Part shown: piece after piece, positions 4,017 through 49,745 of the stretch
How positions within the stretch are numbered: position 1 is the first letter of the stretch
How the letters are laid out: each line of letters starts with the position of its first letter
Assembly: GCA_016219005.1 (NCBI GenBank)
Contig: JACRCN010000044.1
Span: 739 to 64,738 of the forward strand
Reading direction: 5' to 3'
Source: Deltaproteobacteria bacterium
GTDB lineage: Bacteria > Desulfobacterota > Desulfobacteria > Desulfobacterales > SpSt-501
Length of the DNA stretch: 64,000 nt
Made by a program: the position numbers and the translations under genes
The notes under the pieces: model-generated
What the model was told of the DNA's origin: nothing
Database searches by the model: none
Seen by the model: the letters and a program-made list of their open reading frames with translations, nothing else

Positions 4017-4928
4017 CTACCCGAGAAAGTCCACCAGCCCGCGCTGGATGATCTTGGCCGCCGCGGCCATGGACGTTTCATAGGCGGTCTGGAGGTTGTT
4101 CAGCTCGACGGCTACCCGGGTGATATCGGCGTCTTCGTCGCGCCCGATGGCATCCTGGACCTTGGCTTTGAAATGGGTCCAGTACTCTTCGCTGGCCTCG
4201 AGCCGGTAGAGCTTGGGTGCTGCCTCGGAGCGCTTGTTCGTGATCTGGACATGCGCGTCATCAAGCGGGTCGACGGTTGCCTGGATCTGGGTTGTGCCGG
4301 CGGTGAGATCCGCGTTTTCGAGGCCGTTGATGAGATTCCGCAGTTGATCGAAGATGTTGACGCCGCCGTCGGCCGCATCCTGAAAATAATTTCCCCCGTC
4401 GGCATCCACGCTGACCTTGACGTTGTCGACGACGGGGATCTGAAAGCTCCCGTTGTCGCCGTGGTAGGTGGCGTTGTAATTCGCGTCCCGGGTGAAGGGT
4501 GCCGCGTCCGTCTGGTAGCCCGCGAACATGTAGCGCCGGCCGAACCTGGAGTTGGCGAGCTGGATCACCTGGTCGTAGATCTCTTTGACGTTCTCGGCCG
4601 CGAGGGCCCGCTCGCCCGCCGTGACTTCCGCGCCGCTGTTGGCCTCCGCCAGTTCCCGCGCCTGCTGGACGAGGTCGTCCACTTGTTCGAGAGTTTTCTC
4701 GTTGATCTCCAGCCGGGTCTTGCCCTGCTTGATGTTTTCCACGTACTGATCGATAGCGGCCAGGCTCGAACGTCCGTCCAGCACGCGCGCCATGCCGCCA
4801 GGGTCGTCCGACGGCCGGTTGATGCGCTTCTGGCTCGCCAACTGCTCCTGGCGCTGCAGCATGGCCGCGGTCTGCTTCTGGATGTTGTTTATGAATATGT
4901 TCGACATCATGTTCTGTGTGACTCGCAT
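4017..4928 (-). CDS. flgL: Flagellar hook-associated protein 3 (hook-filament junction)
   Basis: MRVTQNMMSNIFINNIQKQTAAMLQRQEQLASQKRINRPSDDPGG is a flagellin-like N-terminus typical of FlgL. It sits after flgK. AGGAGG lies 5 nt upstream of the ATG. Confidence 0.9.
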   Translation of the reverse strand: MRVTQNMMSNIFINNIQKQTAAMLQRQEQLASQKRINRPSDDPGGMARVLDGRSSLAAIDQYVENIKQGKTRLEINEKTLEQVDDLVQQARELAEANSGAEVTAGERALAAENVKEIYDQVIQLANSRFGRRYMFAGYQTDAAPFTRDANYNATYHGDNGSFQIPVVDNVKVSVDADGGNYFQDAADGGVNIFDQLRNLINGLENADLTAGTTQIQATVDPLDDAHVQITNKRSEAAPKLYRLEASEEYWTHFKAKVQDAIGRDEDADITRVAVELNNLQTAYETSMAAAAKIIQRGLVDFLG

Positions 4929-4982
4929 GGGGACCTCCTATACTCCGAGCTTCGAACTCCGCCTTCCAGTTCCGAGCTCCTT

Positions 4983-7954
<2,972 letters not shown>

Positions 7955-19563: not shown

Positions 19564-19591
19564 GCGGGACCCTCCCCTGAAGTAACGGCTC

Positions 19592-19764
19592 AGGTGTTCA
19601 GGCTGAAGGCTGAAGGCTGTAAAACATCTCGCGAAGCGCGAACCACGCCATTCATGACCTTCTCGGTTTCTACGACCTATGGTTCAATAACCAGCTTAAA
19701 TACCCGGCGACGTCTTGTGTGATCACGCATGGTTTGTCCCTGAAAGCCTTCAGTCTGCCTACCT
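19592..19764. repeat. Palindromic intergenic repeat, copy A (arms plus an enlarged internal segment)
   Basis: AGGTGTTCAGGCTGAAGGCTGAAGG ... GCCTTCAGTCTGCCTACCT. The flanks taacggctc / gaagcagttac match copy D. Confidence 0.7.
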
Positions 19765-31236: not shown

Positions 31237-31251
31237 GCAAGGAGCATGCCA
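31237..31251 (-). promoter_or_regulatory. Sigma-54 promoter-like site upstream of fliL
   Basis: The minus strand reads TGGCAT-GCTCC-TTGCT, ~110 nt upstream of fliL. Confidence 0.55.
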
Positions 31252-36648: not shown

Positions 36649-36729
36649 AGGTAGGTGGACGGAAGACTGGAGGCTGAAGGCCAATACTGACCGCGCACGC
36701 CTCGCTCCTTCAGTCTATCCACCTTACCT
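36649..36729. repeat. Palindromic intergenic repeat, copy B (between fliI and fliJ)
   Basis: AGGTAGGTGGACGGAAGACTGGAGGCTGAAGG ... CCTTCAGTCTATCCACCTTACCT. The 3' arm touches the fliI stop codon. Confidence 0.75.
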
Positions 36730-41749: not shown

Positions 41750-42193
41750 CTATTTCCCGATTTCAAGGGCCTTCAAGGCCATGTCCTTGGAGGCCTTGAC
41801 GGCGGCCACGTTGGCTTCGTAGCTGCGGGTCGCGGATATCATGTTGACCATTTCTTCCATCATGTTCACATTAGGCAGTTGGACGTATCCCTGCTCGTCG
41901 GCGTCGGGATGTCCCGGGTCGAATTTCAGGACCGGCGGACGGGGGTCATCGAAAACCTTGCTGGCACGGACCTCGGCCGGCAGGCGGCCCTGGCGGGACT
42001 GCAGCACCTCGCGAAAGGAACCCGACTTCGACCGCGCCTCGAAAACGATTTCCTTGCGGCGGTAGGGACCTCCTTCCGGGGTGCGCGTCGTGTTCACGTT
42101 CGCCAGGTTGGCAGAAATGAGATTCATGCGCATCCGCTGGGCCGAAAGGCCCGAGGAGCTGGTGCGCAGGGCATCATAGATGTCCATGGTCAT
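41750..42193 (-). CDS. flgC: Flagellar proximal rod protein
   Basis: ALRTSSSGLSAQRMRMNLISANLANVNTTRTPEGGPYRRK...LPNVNMMEEMVNMISATRSYEAN. Confidence 0.95.
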   Translation of the reverse strand: MTMDIYDALRTSSSGLSAQRMRMNLISANLANVNTTRTPEGGPYRRKEIVFEARSKSGSFREVLQSRQGRLPAEVRASKVFDDPRPPVLKFDPGHPDADEQGYVQLPNVNMMEEMVNMISATRSYEANVAAVKASKDMALKALEIGK

Positions 42194-42609
42194 CTACCTC
42201 CAATGATGGCGTTTTTCAGGTCTTTGAGTTTAATACCGATCAACTGGGCGGACGTCTTGTATTTGATGGTGTTCTCGGACAGCTCGCCCATCGCCCGATC
42301 GAGGTCCACGGTGTTGCCGTCGGCCCGCAGGCTGAGCGCAGGCGCGGGCGAGTTTTTAAGGGTGACGCGGTCAGCCTCGATCCGGCCGACGGGCAAGTGG
42401 CTGCTTTGGGTGCGCGCCAGCTGAATCCGGGGCCTGCCAGTGCCGAGCTTGCGCAGCTCTTCGTCGACCGCGACCTCGAACGCCTTGTAGTTCGGCGTGT
42501 CGGCGTTGGCGACGTTCGACGAGAGCACCTGATGCTGAATGGACCGGACGTTCAGGCTCTTCTCCAGCAGGTTCACGGTCCCGTCAAAAATTCCCGAAGG
42601 CGACGGCAT
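42190..42609 (-). CDS. flgB: Flagellar proximal rod protein
   Basis: LEKSLNVRSIQHQVLSSNVANADTPNYKA...ENTIKYKTSAQLIG. ATGA overlap with flgC. Confidence 0.95.
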   Translation of the reverse strand: MPSPSGIFDGTVNLLEKSLNVRSIQHQVLSSNVANADTPNYKAFEVAVDEELRKLGTGRPRIQLARTQSSHLPVGRIEADRVTLKNSPAPALSLRADGNTVDLDRAMGELSENTIKYKTSAQLIGIKLKDLKNAIIGGR

Positions 42610-42654: not shown

Positions 42655-44103
42655 TTATATGACAGCAATTTCCGTACCATCACCCGGCCCCGGATCCTCC
42701 CGCGATGCGTTGCGGGTCGCATCAGCCGCCGCGCCGCTTTCCCGATATTCTTTGAGCTTGTTGCGCAGGGTACGGATGCTGATGCCCAGAAGCTCCGCGG
42801 CATGGGTGCGGTTCTGATGCACATGCGAGAGCGTTCCCATGATGAGGTCCCGCTCCATCTCCCACACAGTGATGCCGGTCCGAACGCTCCGCAGCGGTCC
42901 ACCTCCCGCGCCATTATCGGGCCCCGGCGGCAACTGCAGGTGCCGCGGCAGAACCGTGTCGCCGTCGGCCAGGAGCACGGCCCGCTCCAGCGTGTTCTCC
43001 AGCTCCCGCACGTTGCCTTTCCAGTTGTTCCGGGACAGCAGGTCGAGCGCATCTGCGGAAATGCTCGCAACCGCTTTGCCCGTGAAGGTGTTGAATTTCT
43101 CGAGGAAATGATGTGCCAGAAGCAGGACGTCACCCGGACGCTCCCGCAGCGGCGGGATTCTCAGCGGCACCACGTTGATCCGGTAGTAGAGATCCTCCCG
43201 GAAGTTGCCGGCGGCGACGGCCGTGGCGAGGTCGCGGTTGGTGACCACGACCACCCGCGCCTCGATAGGGGTCGGCATGCCGCCGCCGACGCGGTCGATC
43301 TCGCGCTCCTGGAGCACCCTCAGCAGCTTCGCCTGCAGGGCGAGCGACATCTCGCCGATCTCGTCCAGGACGATGGTGCCCTTGCGGGCCAGTTCAAACT
43401 TGCCGATCTTGCGCATGACGGCGCCGGTGAAGGCCCCCTTTTCATGCCCGAACAGCTCGCTCTCGGCCAGGGTATCCGGCAGGGCTGCGCAGTTCACCGC
43501 CACATATGGAGCTTCCGGATGCAGACCGTGGCGGTGGATATAGGCGGCCAGCAACTCCTTGCCCGTGCCGCTCTCGCCCTGGATCAGAACGGTGGCGGTG
43601 CTGCGGGCGACCTGGCGCGCCAGCGCCAGCACCTCGAGCAGGCGGCCGTCCTGGGTGACGAGCGTCTTGCGGCTGGACCGAGCGTCGGCGCTCTTGGGGC
43701 TGATCGCGGCCTCCCGCGCACCTTGCGTCTGCAAGGCTTTACGCACGCTCGTCTCCAAGCTCTCCAGCGCAAAAGGTTTGAGCAAATAGTCGCAAGCGCC
43801 GGCCTGCATGGCCTCGACGGCATTCTCGACGCTGCCGCCGGCGGTCATGACGATGACCGGAATGGGAACACCCAGGCGCCGCGCCGCCCGCAGCACGTCC
43901 AGTCCGGTCACATCGGGCATTTTGAGGTCGGTGACCACCAGGCTGAAGCTTGCGCGGGTGAGCCGCGCCAGGGCCTCGCGCCCCCCCGCGACGGCCTCCG
44001 CGGCAAACCCGCCACGCTGGAGCGCCTGGGTGAGAACGGACCGGATGGCGGGGTCGTCGTCGACGATCAATACGGACTGGGTTCCGGTGGTCAATGCATG
44101 CAT
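42655..44103 (-). CDS. Sigma-54-dependent response regulator (FlrC/FleR/NtrC-type)
   Basis: REC is VLIVDDDPAIRSVL...LVVTDLKMPDVTGLDVL. AAA+ shows VLIQGESGTGKELLA and GAFTGA; ESELFGHEKGAFTG is the GAFTGA loop. The C-terminal Fis-type HTH shows NRTHAAELLGISIRTLRNKLKEY. ATG at 44101-44103. Confidence 0.9.
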   Translation of the reverse strand: MHALTTGTQSVLIVDDDPAIRSVLTQALQRGGFAAEAVAGGREALARLTRASFSLVVTDLKMPDVTGLDVLRAARRLGVPIPVIVMTAGGSVENAVEAMQAGACDYLLKPFALESLETSVRKALQTQGAREAAISPKSADARSSRKTLVTQDGRLLEVLALARQVARSTATVLIQGESGTGKELLAAYIHRHGLHPEAPYVAVNCAALPDTLAESELFGHEKGAFTGAVMRKIGKFELARKGTIVLDEIGEMSLALQAKLLRVLQEREIDRVGGGMPTPIEARVVVVTNRDLATAVAAGNFREDLYYRINVVPLRIPPLRERPGDVLLLAHHFLEKFNTFTGKAVASISADALDLLSRNNWKGNVRELENTLERAVLLADGDTVLPRHLQLPPGPDNGAGGGPLRSVRTGITVWEMERDLIMGTLSHVHQNRTHAAELLGISIRTLRNKLKEYRESGAAADATRNASREDPGPGDGTEIAVI

Positions 44104-44174: not shown

Positions 44175-44189
44175 GCAAATAGCATGCCA
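44175..44189 (-). promoter_or_regulatory. Sigma-54 promoter-like site upstream of the FlrC-like regulator and flgB operon
   Basis: The minus strand reads TGGCAT-GCTAT-TTGCT, 72-86 nt upstream of the start codon. Confidence 0.55.
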
Positions 44190-44327
44190 CCCGGCATTGC
44201 GCGGTCGCCGCCGGCCCGGGCGAGAGCTGGCGCGGCGTGCGGCAAGTCCCCACTCCCTCATCCGGCCGAAATCGCCGTCAATGGTCGTGGATGCGGCCGT
44301 CACCCTCTTGACGCAGGTTTTTTGCAA

Positions 44328-44552
44328 CTAGAAGCTATCTCAAAAACAGCAGATCACAGCCGAGGGCAAGGCGCACGCCGATGAAAAAGCGCAGCCGCGG
44401 CACGTGGCGGCCATTTTTCAGAGGCGTGCAATGCCGCCAGCGACTGTCAGATGCATTCTTGAGACAGCTTCTGCTCGGGAAGCAATGATGAGTGGGGTAG
44501 AGAGAACTACGAAATACGCAATCGACGTGAAAGGGCAAGCCCAGCTACTGGT
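44328..44552. repeat. Non-coding repeat module X, copy 1
   Basis: Aligns by eye with 47916-48104. For example, cagcagatcacagccgagggcaaggcgcacgccgatgaa matches ...gcgcgcgccgatgaa, and gtgcaatgccgccagcgactgtcagatgcatt matches gtgcaacgccaccagcgcgctgtcagatgcatt. Indels break every reading frame. Confidence 0.7.
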
Positions 44553-44814
44553 TGAGGTTTCTTGATAACGCATTTTCAGGTGGTTTGCGCGTTTCGCAGT
44601 TAAACGTGATTTCAGATGGCGAAGGTGCAACAATATCGGATGCATCGGCAGTCGAAGCGGGAGACAGGATCTTCGAAAGGTGGCAAGGCGGGACGAGCCT
44701 CAGGATCGACGGCAACTTGCGCAGCTCCGGTGTCTCAGAGGGATGCTTACGCCCTCCCCCTTTGATCTTTCAGCCTTGAGCTTCGATGTCCATTGTCCCC
44801 GCTTTCAGCTTTCC

Positions 44815-45879
44815 TCAAGCCCCGCAGGGCCGCAGCTGGTGGCGCTTGATTTTCTCCACCAGGGTGGTGCGGTTGAGGTGCAGCAGCTTGGCGGCCTTGT
44901 TCTTGACCCACTGGGTCTTCTCAAGCGATTGCAGGATGAGCGTCTTCTCAAACTCCGTGACGGCGCTCGTGAGGCAGATGCCCTCCTCGGAGATCTCCAG
45001 CACGGTCGGCGCTTCGACCCCGCGCACACCGGTTTTAAGCTCCGGCGGCAGGTCGCGGCGCGTGATGGTGCCGGCAGCCTTGAGCACAACCATCCGCTCC
45101 ACCAGGTTCTTAAGCTCGCGTACATTGCCCGGCCAGCGGTGCGCCATCATGTCATCGAGGGCGTCTGCGCTCAGACCTTCCACCTGGCGGTGGTTCTTGC
45201 GGTTGGATTCCGCGAGGAAGTACGCCGCCAGGTGGGGGATGTCCTGGGTGCGCTCGCGCAGGGCCGGCAGCATCATGGGGATGACGTAAAGCCGGTAGAA
45301 GAGATCCTCGCGGAAATTGCCCTTCTGCACTTCCTCCGAAAGGTCGCGATGGGTGGCGGTGATGATCCGCACGTCCACCTTGATGGTCTTGGAACCGCCG
45401 ACCGGCTCGAACTCACCTTCCTCCAGCACCTTCAGGACCTTCACCTGAAGGTCGGCGCTCATGTCGCCGATTTCGTCCAAAAACACGGTGCCGCCGTCTG
45501 CCAGTTCGAACTTCCCGGGCTTGGTGGTGGTGGCTCCGGTGAAGGCGCCCTTCACATGCCCGAAGAGCTCGCTCTCCAAAAGGTTCTCCGGGATGGCGCC
45601 GCAGTTGATCGATATGAATGGCTTCGCACGGCGCCGGGATTTTTTGTGGATCGCCCGCGCCACCAGACCCTTGCCGGTGCCGGTCTCGCCGTTGATGAGA
45701 ATGGTGCTGTCGCAGTCGGCCACCTTCTCGATCAGCTCGAATATCTCGAGCATGCGGGAGCTGCGGCCGATCATATCGTCGAACCGGGCCGCTGTAGAGG
45801 AATTTTCCGCATCGACGGCTGGCGCGGAAAATAGATCCATTTGCTCTGAACCGGACTTGCGGGCAGCGGCCTTCTGCAC
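44815..45879 (-). CDS. Receiver-less sigma-54 enhancer-binding protein (AAA+ plus Fis-HTH only); candidate top-level flagellar regulator
   Basis: [39 protein letters not shown]...[15 protein letters not shown]...[11 protein letters not shown]...[19 protein letters not shown]. Only ~35 aa precede the AAA+ domain. GTG start with AAAGGAGA 5 nt upstream. Confidence 0.88.
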
Positions 45880-45986
45880 GGCGATCTCCTTTTCGGGTGC
45901 ACCCGCGCGCCAAACTCATCGCACGCGGGAGATTGCGGTCACGCGCAAAGCGCTCCGCTCGACAACGGCAACGCAACGGCAGTTGA

Positions 45987-46001
45987 GCAATATCCATGCC
46001 G
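45987..46001 (-). promoter_or_regulatory. Sigma-54 promoter-like site upstream of the receiver-less activator
   Basis: The minus strand reads CGGCAT-GGATA-TTGCT, ~110 nt upstream of the GTG start. Confidence 0.4.
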
Positions 46002-46537
46002 AAAGGACAACCGGGCTGAGCGCGCGCGCGCCGGCACAGGCAGGCCGGCACCGGGGCCTGCCTGCCGCACTCAAGGAGTGGTGGAGAGAGGAGATCGGTA
46101 CCTACAACATTTTGCGCAGGCCGCTTGATGCGCCCGCACGGGACAGGGCTGCAGACGGTCGTCGCCAGCGCAGGGCAAACCGATCGAGAGGACCTGAAAC
46201 GAGCTTAAAATCTTTGCGTTCTGCAAACAATAATACCGGGCCTCGGCGTCCGGATGGGCCGCGGCCGCAACAAACCTGCAGCCGCCACGCCCGCCCCGCT
46301 CGCTCCGCGGCAGGTGATCCTGACGCCCTTCTCGGTATCAGTTTGAAATCATACAAAATCCGCAAGAAACCAGCAGATAGAGCTTAGGCGCCCGCAGCTT
46401 CGATCCGGCTGCATGACCACTCAACCCGAACAACCCGGGAATTGTGCATTTTGCAAACGATCCGCTACATTTTGCAACAAGACTCCGGGTGCCCATGAAT
46501 ATCAACCGGTTAGCCAGAATCTTAGTGCCAAGCCGAA

Positions 46538-47278
46538 TTACATGGCTGCCCTGGCTTCCTCGATCGAGTGGGCTACCGTAATCTGGCTTGTTTCCTGAAA
46601 CCCTTTCAACTCTTCGCCCTGTTTAGCGTTGGCGACCAGCTTCACCGCGACGTTTGCTTTCTGGCACTGCTGCAACGCGGTGATGATCAGTTTGATCAGG
46701 GACACGTTGGTTTCAGATACCCCGCCCATGTCCAGGATCATCTTCTTCAACTGGGCGGCCGTCATGTCCTTAATTTTGACCTGGAGGCTGTTTTCGACTT
46801 CCACGCTGACCGGCCGCAGGACCTTTGCGGGCAGGGTCAGGACGACGACGTCCTCGACCTGGGTAAAGTATTTGCCCGGCTTCTTGTCATCCATCTCCTC
46901 CGTCTTCGGCTCGAGCGGCATGATCTTGCGCACGCGCTCGATCAGATCCTCGCCCTTGAACGGCTTCACCATGTAGTCGTTGATGCCCTTCTTGACGATG
47001 TTCATGACGTTGTCCTTGCCGGACTCGGCCGTCAGCATGATAACGGGGATGGCCTTCAAGGCATCGTCCCCCTTCAGCCGTTCGAGCATCTCCACCCCGG
47101 TCATAACCGGCATGGTGATGTCGAGGATGATCAGGCCCGGTTTGATTTTCGCGGCGGCGGCCAGCCCCTCCACCCCGTTTTCGGCCTCGGTGATTTCACA
47201 GTTATAAGCTTGAAACGCCTTCTTGACGATCATGCGGATCGTCTTGCTGTCGTCGACGGTCAACACTTTCAACGTCAT
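46538..47278 (-). CDS. Response-regulator receiver fused to a STAS (anti-sigma-antagonist-like) domain
   Basis: REC is VLTVDDSKTIRMIV...LIILDITMPVMTGVEML...DYMVKPF. The C-terminal ~110 aa (VVVLTLPAKVLRPVSVEVENSLQ...ILDMGGVSETNVSLIKLIITALQ) fits SpoIIAA/STAS topology by eye. Confidence 0.8.
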   Translation of the reverse strand: MTLKVLTVDDSKTIRMIVKKAFQAYNCEITEAENGVEGLAAAAKIKPGLIILDITMPVMTGVEMLERLKGDDALKAIPVIMLTAESGKDNVMNIVKKGINDYMVKPFKGEDLIERVRKIMPLEPKTEEMDDKKPGKYFTQVEDVVVLTLPAKVLRPVSVEVENSLQVKIKDMTAAQLKKMILDMGGVSETNVSLIKLIITALQQCQKANVAVKLVANAKQGEELKGFQETSQITVAHSIEEARAAM

Positions 47279-47296
47279 GGTGATCCTCCTGCATTA

Positions 47297-47782
47297 TTAA
47301 TTGGCAGCCTTGATGTAGACTTCCATCAGGGCGGAATGATGACTGTTGCGCACACCGTAGCGCTCGTGCCGATCCCACCCCTTGGATTCGGTTCTGAAAC
47401 TCTCGCCGAACGTGACCGAGGGGATGGAAAGCGAGCAGGTAAATCCGGAATCGCACAGACGAGACTTGAGGTCCCCGCCCACCATGTTGCAAACTTCGCC
47501 GATCACGTCGTGCACCTCCTCATCGCTGCCTATGTCATCCACCGTCATGCTCAGCATTGCCGCGGCTATTTCGCACGCGAACTGGCGGCTGACAAAGATG
47601 CTGACATTGCCCATGGCCGCGCCCGCAAACCCCACCGTGCCGACGATGTGCTTTCCCGTCGTAATGTTCTCGAAGTTCGGCGGCTCCTCCAGTTCAAGCG
47701 ACATGGAGAGCATGGTCTGGAACACTCCCTTCACCGCATTGGTGACGAAACCCTTCAAGTCAATCGTTTGAATCCCACCCAT
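47297..47782 (-). CDS. CheX/CheC-like phosphatase paralog
   Basis: VKGVFQTMLSM...GTVGFAGAAMGNVSIF...HDVIGEVCNMVGGDLK contains the E-x2-N motif. ATG 47782 (AAGGAG 9 nt upstream) is preferred; the track start is 47806. Confidence 0.7.
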   Translation of the reverse strand: MGGIQTIDLKGFVTNAVKGVFQTMLSMSLELEEPPNFENITTGKHIVGTVGFAGAAMGNVSIFVSRQFACEIAAAMLSMTVDDIGSDEEVHDVIGEVCNMVGGDLKSRLCDSGFTCSLSIPSVTFGESFRTESKGWDRHERYGVRNSHHSALMEVYIKAAN

Positions 47783-47846
47783 ATCCCCAATCTCCTTCCC
47801 ATGCATAAATGACGCCGACAGTGCAAATGTCTCGCACTCACAGCCC

Positions 47847-47869
47847 TTATCGGCAGGTTATCCCGATAA
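47847..47869. promoter_or_regulatory. Inverted repeat TTATCGG-N9-CCGATAA. The minus-strand half equals a perfect sigma-28 -10 box (GCCGATAA).
   Basis: Seen directly in the sequence. It lies ~65 nt upstream of the cheX-like start. No good TAAA -35 element occurs at the spacing used by the other two sigma-28-like sites. Confidence 0.3.
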
Positions 47870-47915
47870 CTGAAGATTTTTTTTTTACTACCCAGCTATC
47901 TGAAATCGCTCTTAA

Positions 47916-48104
47916 CTATAAGCCATCTCAAGAGCAGCAGATCACAGCCGAGGGCAAGGCGCGCGCCGATGAAGAGCCTATCCGCGCGGCAGGTGGTGAG
48001 CATATTTCAGGGGCGTGCAACGCCACCAGCGCGCTGTCAGATGCATTTTTTAAGATGGTTTCAACAAAATGCTCGGAATACGCGAAAGTGCATAGCTACT
48101 CAGG
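47916..48104. repeat. Non-coding repeat module X, copy 2
   Basis: See copy 1 (44328-44552). It is immediately followed by palindromic repeat copy C. Confidence 0.7.
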
Positions 48105-48184
48105 TAGATAGACTGAAGGCTGAAGGGCAATGATGATCTTGCAAACCATTTCCTTCAGGCTATTCACCTTCAGTCTGTCTACCT
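48102..48184. repeat. Palindromic intergenic repeat, copy C (best-preserved)
   Basis: AGGTAGATAGACTGAAGG (48102-48119) and CCTTCAGTCTGTCTACCT (48167-48184) are complementary at 17 of 18 positions, with a 47-nt spacer. It lies 36 nt downstream of the HDOD gene stop. Confidence 0.8.
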
Positions 48185-48219
48185 TGCAGTCTAGCGAAGA
48201 TGGTTGATCTTGAGTTCTG

Positions 48220-49068
48220 TCAACCCAGGAAGGAGCGGATGTCGTCGAACTCGGTCAGCATGGAAGCCATGATGGCGTCGACGGCACTCGTTTTGAGCTT
48301 CAGCAGGTCCCAGGCGGCCTTGTCCAGGGGCGGCATCTTATCGTCGCCGCCGGAGCCGAGAGCGAGCGCCCGGGTGAAAATGTCAGCCAGGTGCACGATG
48401 GAAGCCTCCATGGCAAACGTCCCGGCCGCGGCCGGGGCGTGGTGCCAGGCGATGGCGCCCACCAGCTTCGCCGGCAGGTTCCATTGCTCGGCCAGCAGCC
48501 GGCCGATGTCCGCGTGGGTGCACCCCAGCAGGTCCTGTTCGGCCGCCGACATCAGCACGCCCTCGGCCCGGACCCGCTCCGTGATCCGGGCAAACTCGTC
48601 CTGCAGGAACATCATCTCGACGATCTTGCCGATATCGTGCAGCAGCCCGGCGACGAAGAGTTCCTCCAGCTTGTCGTGCCGCAGGAAGTCCCCGATGGAC
48701 TTGGCACCGATCGCGCAGCCCAGTGAATGGTCCCAGAGCTGCTCCTGATCACGCCGGACTCTCGCGATACGTGCGGGGAACAGGTCCAGCACCGAGGTCG
48801 TCAGCAGCAGGTTGCGGATGGCGTCGAACCCGAGCAGCACGATGGCCCCGGTGACGGTGGAGACCCGCTGGGGGAAGCCGTAAAAGGACGAGTTGACAAG
48901 CTTGAGCAGCCGGGCCGTCAGCACCTGGTCGTCCGTGATGATGATGGAGAGATCCTTCGCGGACGCCCTGGGGTCGTTGACCAGCTCGGTGATCCGAAGC
49001 ACCGTACGCGGCAGGGTGGGAAGGTCCTCGACCTTGGCGATGATACGCCTGAGATCAGCTTCGCCCAT
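48220..49068 (-). CDS. Stand-alone HDOD-domain protein
   Basis: LPTLPRTVLRITELVNDP...ARLLKLVNSSFYGF...AGLLHDIGKIV...HADIGRLLAEQW. Confidence 0.85.
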   Translation of the reverse strand: MGEADLRRIIAKVEDLPTLPRTVLRITELVNDPRASAKDLSIIITDDQVLTARLLKLVNSSFYGFPQRVSTVTGAIVLLGFDAIRNLLLTTSVLDLFPARIARVRRDQEQLWDHSLGCAIGAKSIGDFLRHDKLEELFVAGLLHDIGKIVEMMFLQDEFARITERVRAEGVLMSAAEQDLLGCTHADIGRLLAEQWNLPAKLVGAIAWHHAPAAAGTFAMEASIVHLADIFTRALALGSGGDDKMPPLDKAAWDLLKLKTSAVDAIMASMLTEFDDIRSFLG

Positions 49069-49405: not shown

Positions 49406-49526
49406 GGGTCGCGGTTCATCCTTATTATGAATTCCCGCCAGGCAGCGGCAGGTCGCAAGCGGCTTTTCGTCGGAAATCACTCTTAACCACGAAATGCGCG
49501 AAGCACGCGAACGTGCGTAACGACTC

Positions 49527-49593
49527 AGGTGGCCCGGCTGGAGGCTGAAGGGCAATTTTGTTCCCGCATTTCTTTTCCTTCAGTCTATCAACC
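49527..49593. repeat. Palindromic intergenic repeat, copy D (5' arm degenerate)
   Basis: AGGTGGCCCGGCTGGAGGCTGAAGGGCAAT...CCTTCAGTCTATCAACC. The flanks taacgactc / ggagcagttgc match copy A. Confidence 0.7.
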
Positions 49594-49745
49594 GGAGCAG
49601 TTGCTTTCATCTTAACATAAAGACGAGGCTCACGAAAGCCCGGTCGAGGATCGCCTCGGACTGAGGCCGATGACGCAGGCGAACACGCAAAACTCCCCGC
49701 GGCAGGCTGTCGGGAATCAGGCCCCGCAGGAAACAAAAAAAGAAC

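Follow-up and report, generated by a model that had tools for sequence, protein, structure and literature searches.

The two homologous non-coding modules considered here lie at positions 44331-44471 and 47919-48062 of a 64,000-nucleotide stretch of DNA (the window, C6:739-64738) from a 5.24-Mb Desulfobacterales assembly of 106 contigs with 60% G+C. We consider it very likely that both are ordinary copies of a transposable element of the miniature inverted-repeat type (MITE) having the ends of an IS5-type insertion sequence (IS), and that they landed by chance before two flagellar regulatory operons. An initial annotation of this DNA had described a module duplicated upstream of the two operons and had listed a small RNA gene, a shared cis-regulatory leader and the relic of a miniature mobile element as candidate roles; it is the third candidate that turned out to be right.

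The observation of two homologous non-coding modules is confirmed. In the pairwise alignment, regions 44300-44620 and 47880-48200 match well in a central block and poorly outside it, a repeat search of the window returns the same blocks (D4, 60 nt at 92%; D8, 47 nt at 83%), and a BLAST search within the genome pairs copy 1 with copy 2 at E = 1e-31, well outside what chance would give. The two copies are 78% identical, and the conserved blocks quoted for them are borne out. The exact limits of the copies were set by the family alignment together with the empty sites found in relatives. Copy 1 is 141 bp long (44331-44471, plus strand), with left end GAAGCTATCTCAAAAAC and right end GAATGCATTCTTGAGACAGCTTC, and copy 2 is 144 bp long (47919-48062, plus strand), with left end TAAGCCATCTCAAGAG and right end TTTTTTAAGATGGTTTC. 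While the homology itself was correctly recognized, the intervals originally drawn around it extended 40-80 bp too far to the right, and 44472-44552 and 48063-48104 fall outside the module. Both copies are closer to the family consensus (89% identity for copy 1 and 84% for copy 2) than to each other, which argues for independent insertions and not for local duplication.

The anatomy of the element is that of a short mobile element. It is bounded by terminal inverted repeats of 16-19 bp that are 80-99% conserved across copies; in the family alignment conservation climbs steeply at the left repeat, GAAGCCATCTCAAAAAT, and drops beyond the right one, ATTTTTGAGATAGCTTC. Copies are 138-145 bp long. 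The 2-bp outer flanks are identical in 32 of 65 copies; when the flanks were shuffled 2000 times, the average was 12.8 and no shuffle exceeded 22. The duplication is most often TA (12 copies), followed by TC (8), TT (5) and AT (5). The logo of the target is itself roughly palindromic, TGAC-TA-GTCA. The whole element forms an imperfect palindrome, which as RNA is predicted to fold into a hairpin of about 70 bp from either strand (-77.6 and -81.4 kcal/mol, z about -10). Each of the six frames of the consensus contains stop codons, and there are indel differences between copies, in agreement with the initial view that indels shift the reading frames and that conservation is at the nucleotide level.

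The family is far larger than the two copies of the window. Using BLAST with the family consensus, we identified 115 loci in the genome: 73 are full length, meaning that they span 130 or more of the 150 positions of the consensus, and 42 are partial. Identity to the consensus has a median of 90% and a maximum of 98%. Full copies are evenly divided between the strands (37 plus, 36 minus), and 53 of the 73 are fully intergenic, although a crude gene call leaves just ~12.5% of the genome between genes. By gene context, the intergenic copies are tandem (28), convergent (13) or divergent (6), and those in tandem contexts show no orientation bias, with 11 co-oriented with the genes and 17 opposite. 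That divergent spacers, which are rich in promoters, hold few copies is more in line with selection against harm to regulation than with a regulatory role. The idea of a two-copy duplication belonging to two regulatory operons is not supported, since about 115 loci are spread over every intergenic context without a preferred orientation. The initial annotation had itself reasoned that many degenerate copies elsewhere would point to a neutral repeat, and this is what the 115 loci represent. We found no description of this MITE family in the literature, although the search was limited and is not proof of absence.

Insertion polymorphism is seen at both sites. The host genome is an uncultured Desulfobacterales metagenome-assembled genome (MAG), and the relatives go by the labels Desulfatibacillum sp. 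or Desulfobacterales. In 19 of these relatives the gene order flagellin / 116-aa ORF / HDOD / CheX / REC-STAS / sigma-54 activator / REC-sigma-54 activator is kept, and in all 19 the MITE is absent throughout the syntenic loci (up to 12.7 kb). The nearest relatives have precise empty orthologous sites, found for copy 1 in loci L041 and L042 and for copy 2 in L041. At the copy-1 site the window reads ttttgcaacTA-MITE-TGctcggg, with the left duplication TA at 44329-44330 and the right one, now TG, at 44472-44473, whereas L041 and L042 read ggtttgtaacTActcaggtag (empty site gtaacTActcagg). At the copy-2 site the window reads ctcttaacTA-MITE-AAcaaaatgctcgg, with TA at 47917-47918 and the right copy, now AA, at 48063-48064, whereas L041 reads cttttaacTAtgaaatgcgcgg. 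The target of both copies is AAC-TA. Precise empty sites therefore imply that TA was duplicated at each insertion and that one base of one copy has mutated since. The HDOD-cheX spacer of L041, the closest relative (~4560-5380), is about 925 bp long versus about 410 bp in the window, and the extra ~800 bp resembles one or two small genes.

The window also holds a paralogous "empty site". The sequence hosting copy 2 has a left part at 47895-47918 and a right part at 48063-48190, the latter with about 40 nt of unique sequence followed by a second palindromic repeat (GGTAGATAGACTGAAGG…CCTTCAGTCTGTCTACC). The paralogue of this host sequence without the MITE is located at 49470-49600, upstream of the operon of the 116-aa ORF and HDOD. 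If the module is excised and one TA kept, the copy-2 flanks align collinearly with 49455-49610 over 109 matched positions (repeat family D2). The earlier impression that the 49470 site looks like copy 2 with the module deleted was thus accurate, as was the insertion-like structure deduced from it. The second palindromic repeat family (GGTAGAYAGACTGAAGG … CCTTCAGTCTRTCTACC, with CTGAAGGGCAAT inside) is unrelated to the MITE. It is found at 48096-48190, 49527-49600, ~19582-19616 and 36667-36723, has about 15-20 degenerate copies genome-wide, and has a copy in L041 and L042 at the site orthologous to that of copy 1; both MITE copies are inserted into or beside copies of it.

Given the stable hairpin, it might be tempting to regard the module as a small RNA gene or a structured, riboswitch-like cis-regulatory leader common to the two flagellar regulatory operons. 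In addition to the predicted stability, the two window copies are oriented alike with respect to the genes downstream of them, a recognizable core occurs across the genus, and the folds of real copies are somewhat more stable than those of the consensus with an equal number of random substitutions (mean -59.6 vs -52.8 kcal/mol). Nonetheless, we regard this explanation as very improbable. The family occupies all intergenic contexts, and its tandem copies are unbiased in orientation. No Rfam family matched anywhere in the window at gathering scores, and around both copies at E <= 1 there were only chance hairpin matches (mir-3202, mir-9447, sR47), mostly on the second repeat. Covariation was assessed for 55 predicted pairs in 65 copies, with permutations as the null. 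There were 11 pair-keeping double changes compared with 8.9 in the permutations (maximum 17), that is, no covariation, and 359 broken pairs compared with 363 expected. Column-permuted copies fold at -57.2 to -58.4 kcal/mol, close to the real ones. Since real copies fold no better than permuted copies, there is no evidence for selection on structure; the lack of covariation together with the similar energies means that the hairpin arms decay independently. The small-RNA candidate also has to contend with some 115 loci and with sites that are empty in 19 relatives keeping the operons.

A leader is further disfavored by the position of the promoters. A sigma-54 -24/-12 promoter, TGGCATGCTATTTGC, is predicted at 44189 to 44175 on the minus strand for the operon of the FlrC-like REC-sigma-54 activator, flgB and flgC, and is conserved in L041 and L042; the window contains 2 matches to the -24/-12 consensus versus 0.38 expected. 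The other exact match is TGGCATGCTCCTTGC at 31237-31251, also on the minus strand. For the cheX/REC-STAS operon a sigma-28-like promoter is predicted at 47847-47874 (minus strand), with the -10 element GCCGATAA at 47854 to 47847 and a -35-like element, TTCAGTTA; the motif alone is not significant, and the evidence for it is a position conserved in four relatives. Copy 1 is found just where conservation ends, some 140 bp upstream of the sigma-54 site, and the start of copy 2 is some 45 bp upstream of the sigma-28-like -35. Both copies are therefore upstream of the predicted promoters, and neither would be part of a leader; moreover, both sites lack the module in the 19 syntenic relatives.

A presumed parent IS with the same ends can be traced. 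Some orphan ends in the genome run into different sequence. In two places, C82:1-236 and C63:8806-8942, an ORF starting MELTDEQWNRIEPIIL… comes after the same end; this ORF is a DUF4096 domain, which forms the N-terminal part of IS4/IS5-type transposases. When the IS end was used as a DNA query in a search that included same-genus relatives, matches were obtained only in the genome itself and in G026, a genome from another family of the same order. There we found a complete IS of about 832 bp (L122, 904-1735) with ends GAAGCCATCTCAAAA and a 2-bp TT duplication. A frameshift at GCAAAAAAAGG, an A-run, joins the two ORFs of the IS, and the resulting 257-aa transposase, comprising DUF4096 and DDE_Tnp_1, scores 235 bits on the NCBIfam profile NF033580 "IS5 family transposase" (cut-off 110). 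We take this profile to represent the IS427/ISL2/IS1031-like subgroup in the sense of ISfinder, whose traits the IS shares: two ORFs with a frameshift at an A-run, DUF4096 and DDE domains, ends starting with GA and a 2-bp duplication.

In the genome carrying the window, the transposase is present only as fragments of the IS at three contig termini, C82:1-236 (start), C63:8806-8942 (end) and C59:55215-55353 (end), all flanked by TA, and the NF033580 profile matched just two contig-end fragments. Confinement of IS remnants to contig termini is the usual effect of a multi-copy IS on short-read assembly. End pairs spaced 0.2-6 kb apart in the genome were also inspected as possible parents. The sole 1.5-kb pair, C52:41048-42548, encloses an aminotransferase gene and not a transposase, and was rejected; this gene sits between two MITE fragments. 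The 5' fragment (C52:41048-41090, …CAGCCGAGGGCAAGG) stops 2 nt before the ATG of the class-V-like aminotransferase ORF, and its GAGGG/AAGG may serve as the ribosome-binding site of that ORF.

Judging from sequence features, the element could be mobilized in trans by a cognate transposase. The DDE transposase of the IS would bind the inverted repeats of the MITE and would then cut and paste, or copy, the element into TA (more generally TN) within a roughly palindromic target, duplicating two bases. In the window, both copies landed at AAC-TA between the end of a flagellar operon and the next promoter, a spacer that tolerates insertions. All the sequence-level traits of a MITE that we tested were found, namely the size, the non-coding nature, inverted repeats, target duplication, dispersal, IS ends and insertion polymorphism, which is consistent with this assignment.

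Several observations nevertheless weigh against the assignment or against the proposed parentage. The complete parent IS is not assembled in the genome itself, where its ends occur at contig termini only, and the complete IS comes from another family of the order, its first 236 nt being 77% identical at the nucleotide level. The sequence common to MITE and IS is limited to the terminal 16-17 nt, with nothing else shared, and the parentage therefore rests on these nucleotides and on the equal length of the duplication. About half of the copies have lost matching 2-bp flanks, and in both window copies one of the two TA duplicates carries a mutated base. There is also a sister MITE subfamily, which has a homologous core (~75% identity) and different ends, GAAGTGGTTTCAnAAC. 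It counts about eight copies in the genome (C61:6927-7069, C78:80686-80830, C54:68283-68425 and others on C101, C32, C99 and C53), and no IS matching its ends was found in the assembly. In addition, other genomes of the genus often contain matches to the core alone (consensus positions 25-127). Such conservation of the core is not explained by transposase binding. It is conceivable, though in our estimation improbable, that the core, conserved across the genus and parts of the order and even in the sister subfamily with its different ends, has a function of its own, for example as an operon-insulating hairpin or an RNase target. If this were the case, the insertions before the FlrC-like and cheX operons would amount to lineage-specific rewiring of the flagellar hierarchy.

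A related possibility is that the MITEs were co-opted at both loci, where some 145 bp and a hairpin might insulate the flagellar hierarchy of this lineage or alter its tuning, by blocking read-through, by shifting an enhancer site or by adding a promoter. Regulatory side effects of MITEs have a precedent in the Correia elements of Neisseria. Copy 1 is situated at the edge of conservation, at the usual distance of an enhancer site from the sigma-54 promoter, and copy 2 splits a sequence of about 60 nt common to the 49470 site and the L041 orthologue. This non-palindromic stretch (GAAATCRCTCTTAAC…AAATGCKCGRA…CGCGAAMGTGC; 47895-47918 plus 48063-48100, compared with 49470-49525) is shared by no regions other than those preceding cheX and the 116-aa ORF. 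However, it is missing in the more distant relatives L044 and L045, which keep the operon. The window copies are also indistinguishable from the other ~70 and, by their identity to the consensus, are among the more decayed. We therefore find co-option at these two loci unlikely. Most likely the window copies are neutral passengers, whose 70-bp hairpin could at most affect read-through from upstream genes.

Being palindromic, intergenic and present in many copies, the element might be compared with repetitive extragenic palindromes (REP) or bacterial interspersed mosaic elements (BIME) spread by a REP-associated tyrosine transposase (RAYT) of the IS200/IS605-like type. REP units, however, are 20-40 nt long and have neither the inverted-repeat ends of a DDE-type IS nor target duplications, whereas the ~144-bp element has both. 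Unrelated flanks, together with relatives in which neither site is filled, exclude a local segmental duplication. An origin by either of these routes is exceedingly improbable.

Among known MITEs, Correia elements resemble the element in architecture, which is alike in size, inverted repeats, TA duplication and hairpin. They are ~100-155 bp long, with terminal inverted repeats and a TA duplication, occur in around a hundred intergenic copies and form a near-palindromic long hairpin. Their ends are 26 bp long and include promoter elements and an IHF site. Correia elements are not known to have an assigned parent IS, whereas the MITE described here has a presumed one. The element was not identified as a Correia element: the end sequence differs, there is no sequence similarity, and the host is a Desulfobacterales MAG, not Neisseria. 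The presumed parent is an IS of the IS427/ISL2/IS1031 type, with which the window elements share the 16-17 terminal nucleotides while encoding nothing themselves.

MITEs with IS5-family ends are known from Porphyromonas gingivalis, where the ends of BrickBuilt, MITE293 and MITE700 match ISPg1, ISPg3, ISPg4 and ISPg9, and from Neisseria, where the ends of the ATR element match ISNme1 (PMC4596501). Like these, the present MITE is short, non-coding and multi-copy, has short target duplications, and occurs as full and partial copies together. In those MITEs, too, only the inverted termini equal those of IS5-family ISs of the same genomes. In contrast to them, the sequence here is unrelated, there is no internal minisatellite, and the host phylum is Desulfobacterota. 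The copy number also differs, with 115 loci here versus 10-20 typical for bacteria (PMC4596501).

The neighboring genes, assigned by Pfam, are all on the minus strand. CheX (47297-47806) and REC-STAS (46538-47278) lie downstream of copy 2, and HDOD (48220-49068) lies on its other side. A sigma-54 activator without a receiver domain (44815-45879) precedes the FlrC-like protein with REC, sigma-54 AAA+ and HTH_8 domains (42655-44103), which is followed by FlgB and FlgC (41750-42609). There is no histidine kinase gene between the two tandem activators, and the 711-bp gap that separates them contains MITE copy 1 as well as the second repeat in decayed form.

This MITE family opens no new biological question, and its significance is primarily for the annotation and comparison of these genomes. 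It allows about 115 intergenic stretches here, and many in the MAGs of related Desulfobacterales, to be assigned to one MITE family; these should not be taken for small RNAs, leaders or local duplications. Some of the contig breaks are also explained by the family, as the parent IS is located at contig termini. Finally, filled and empty sites can be used as markers for strain-level comparison.

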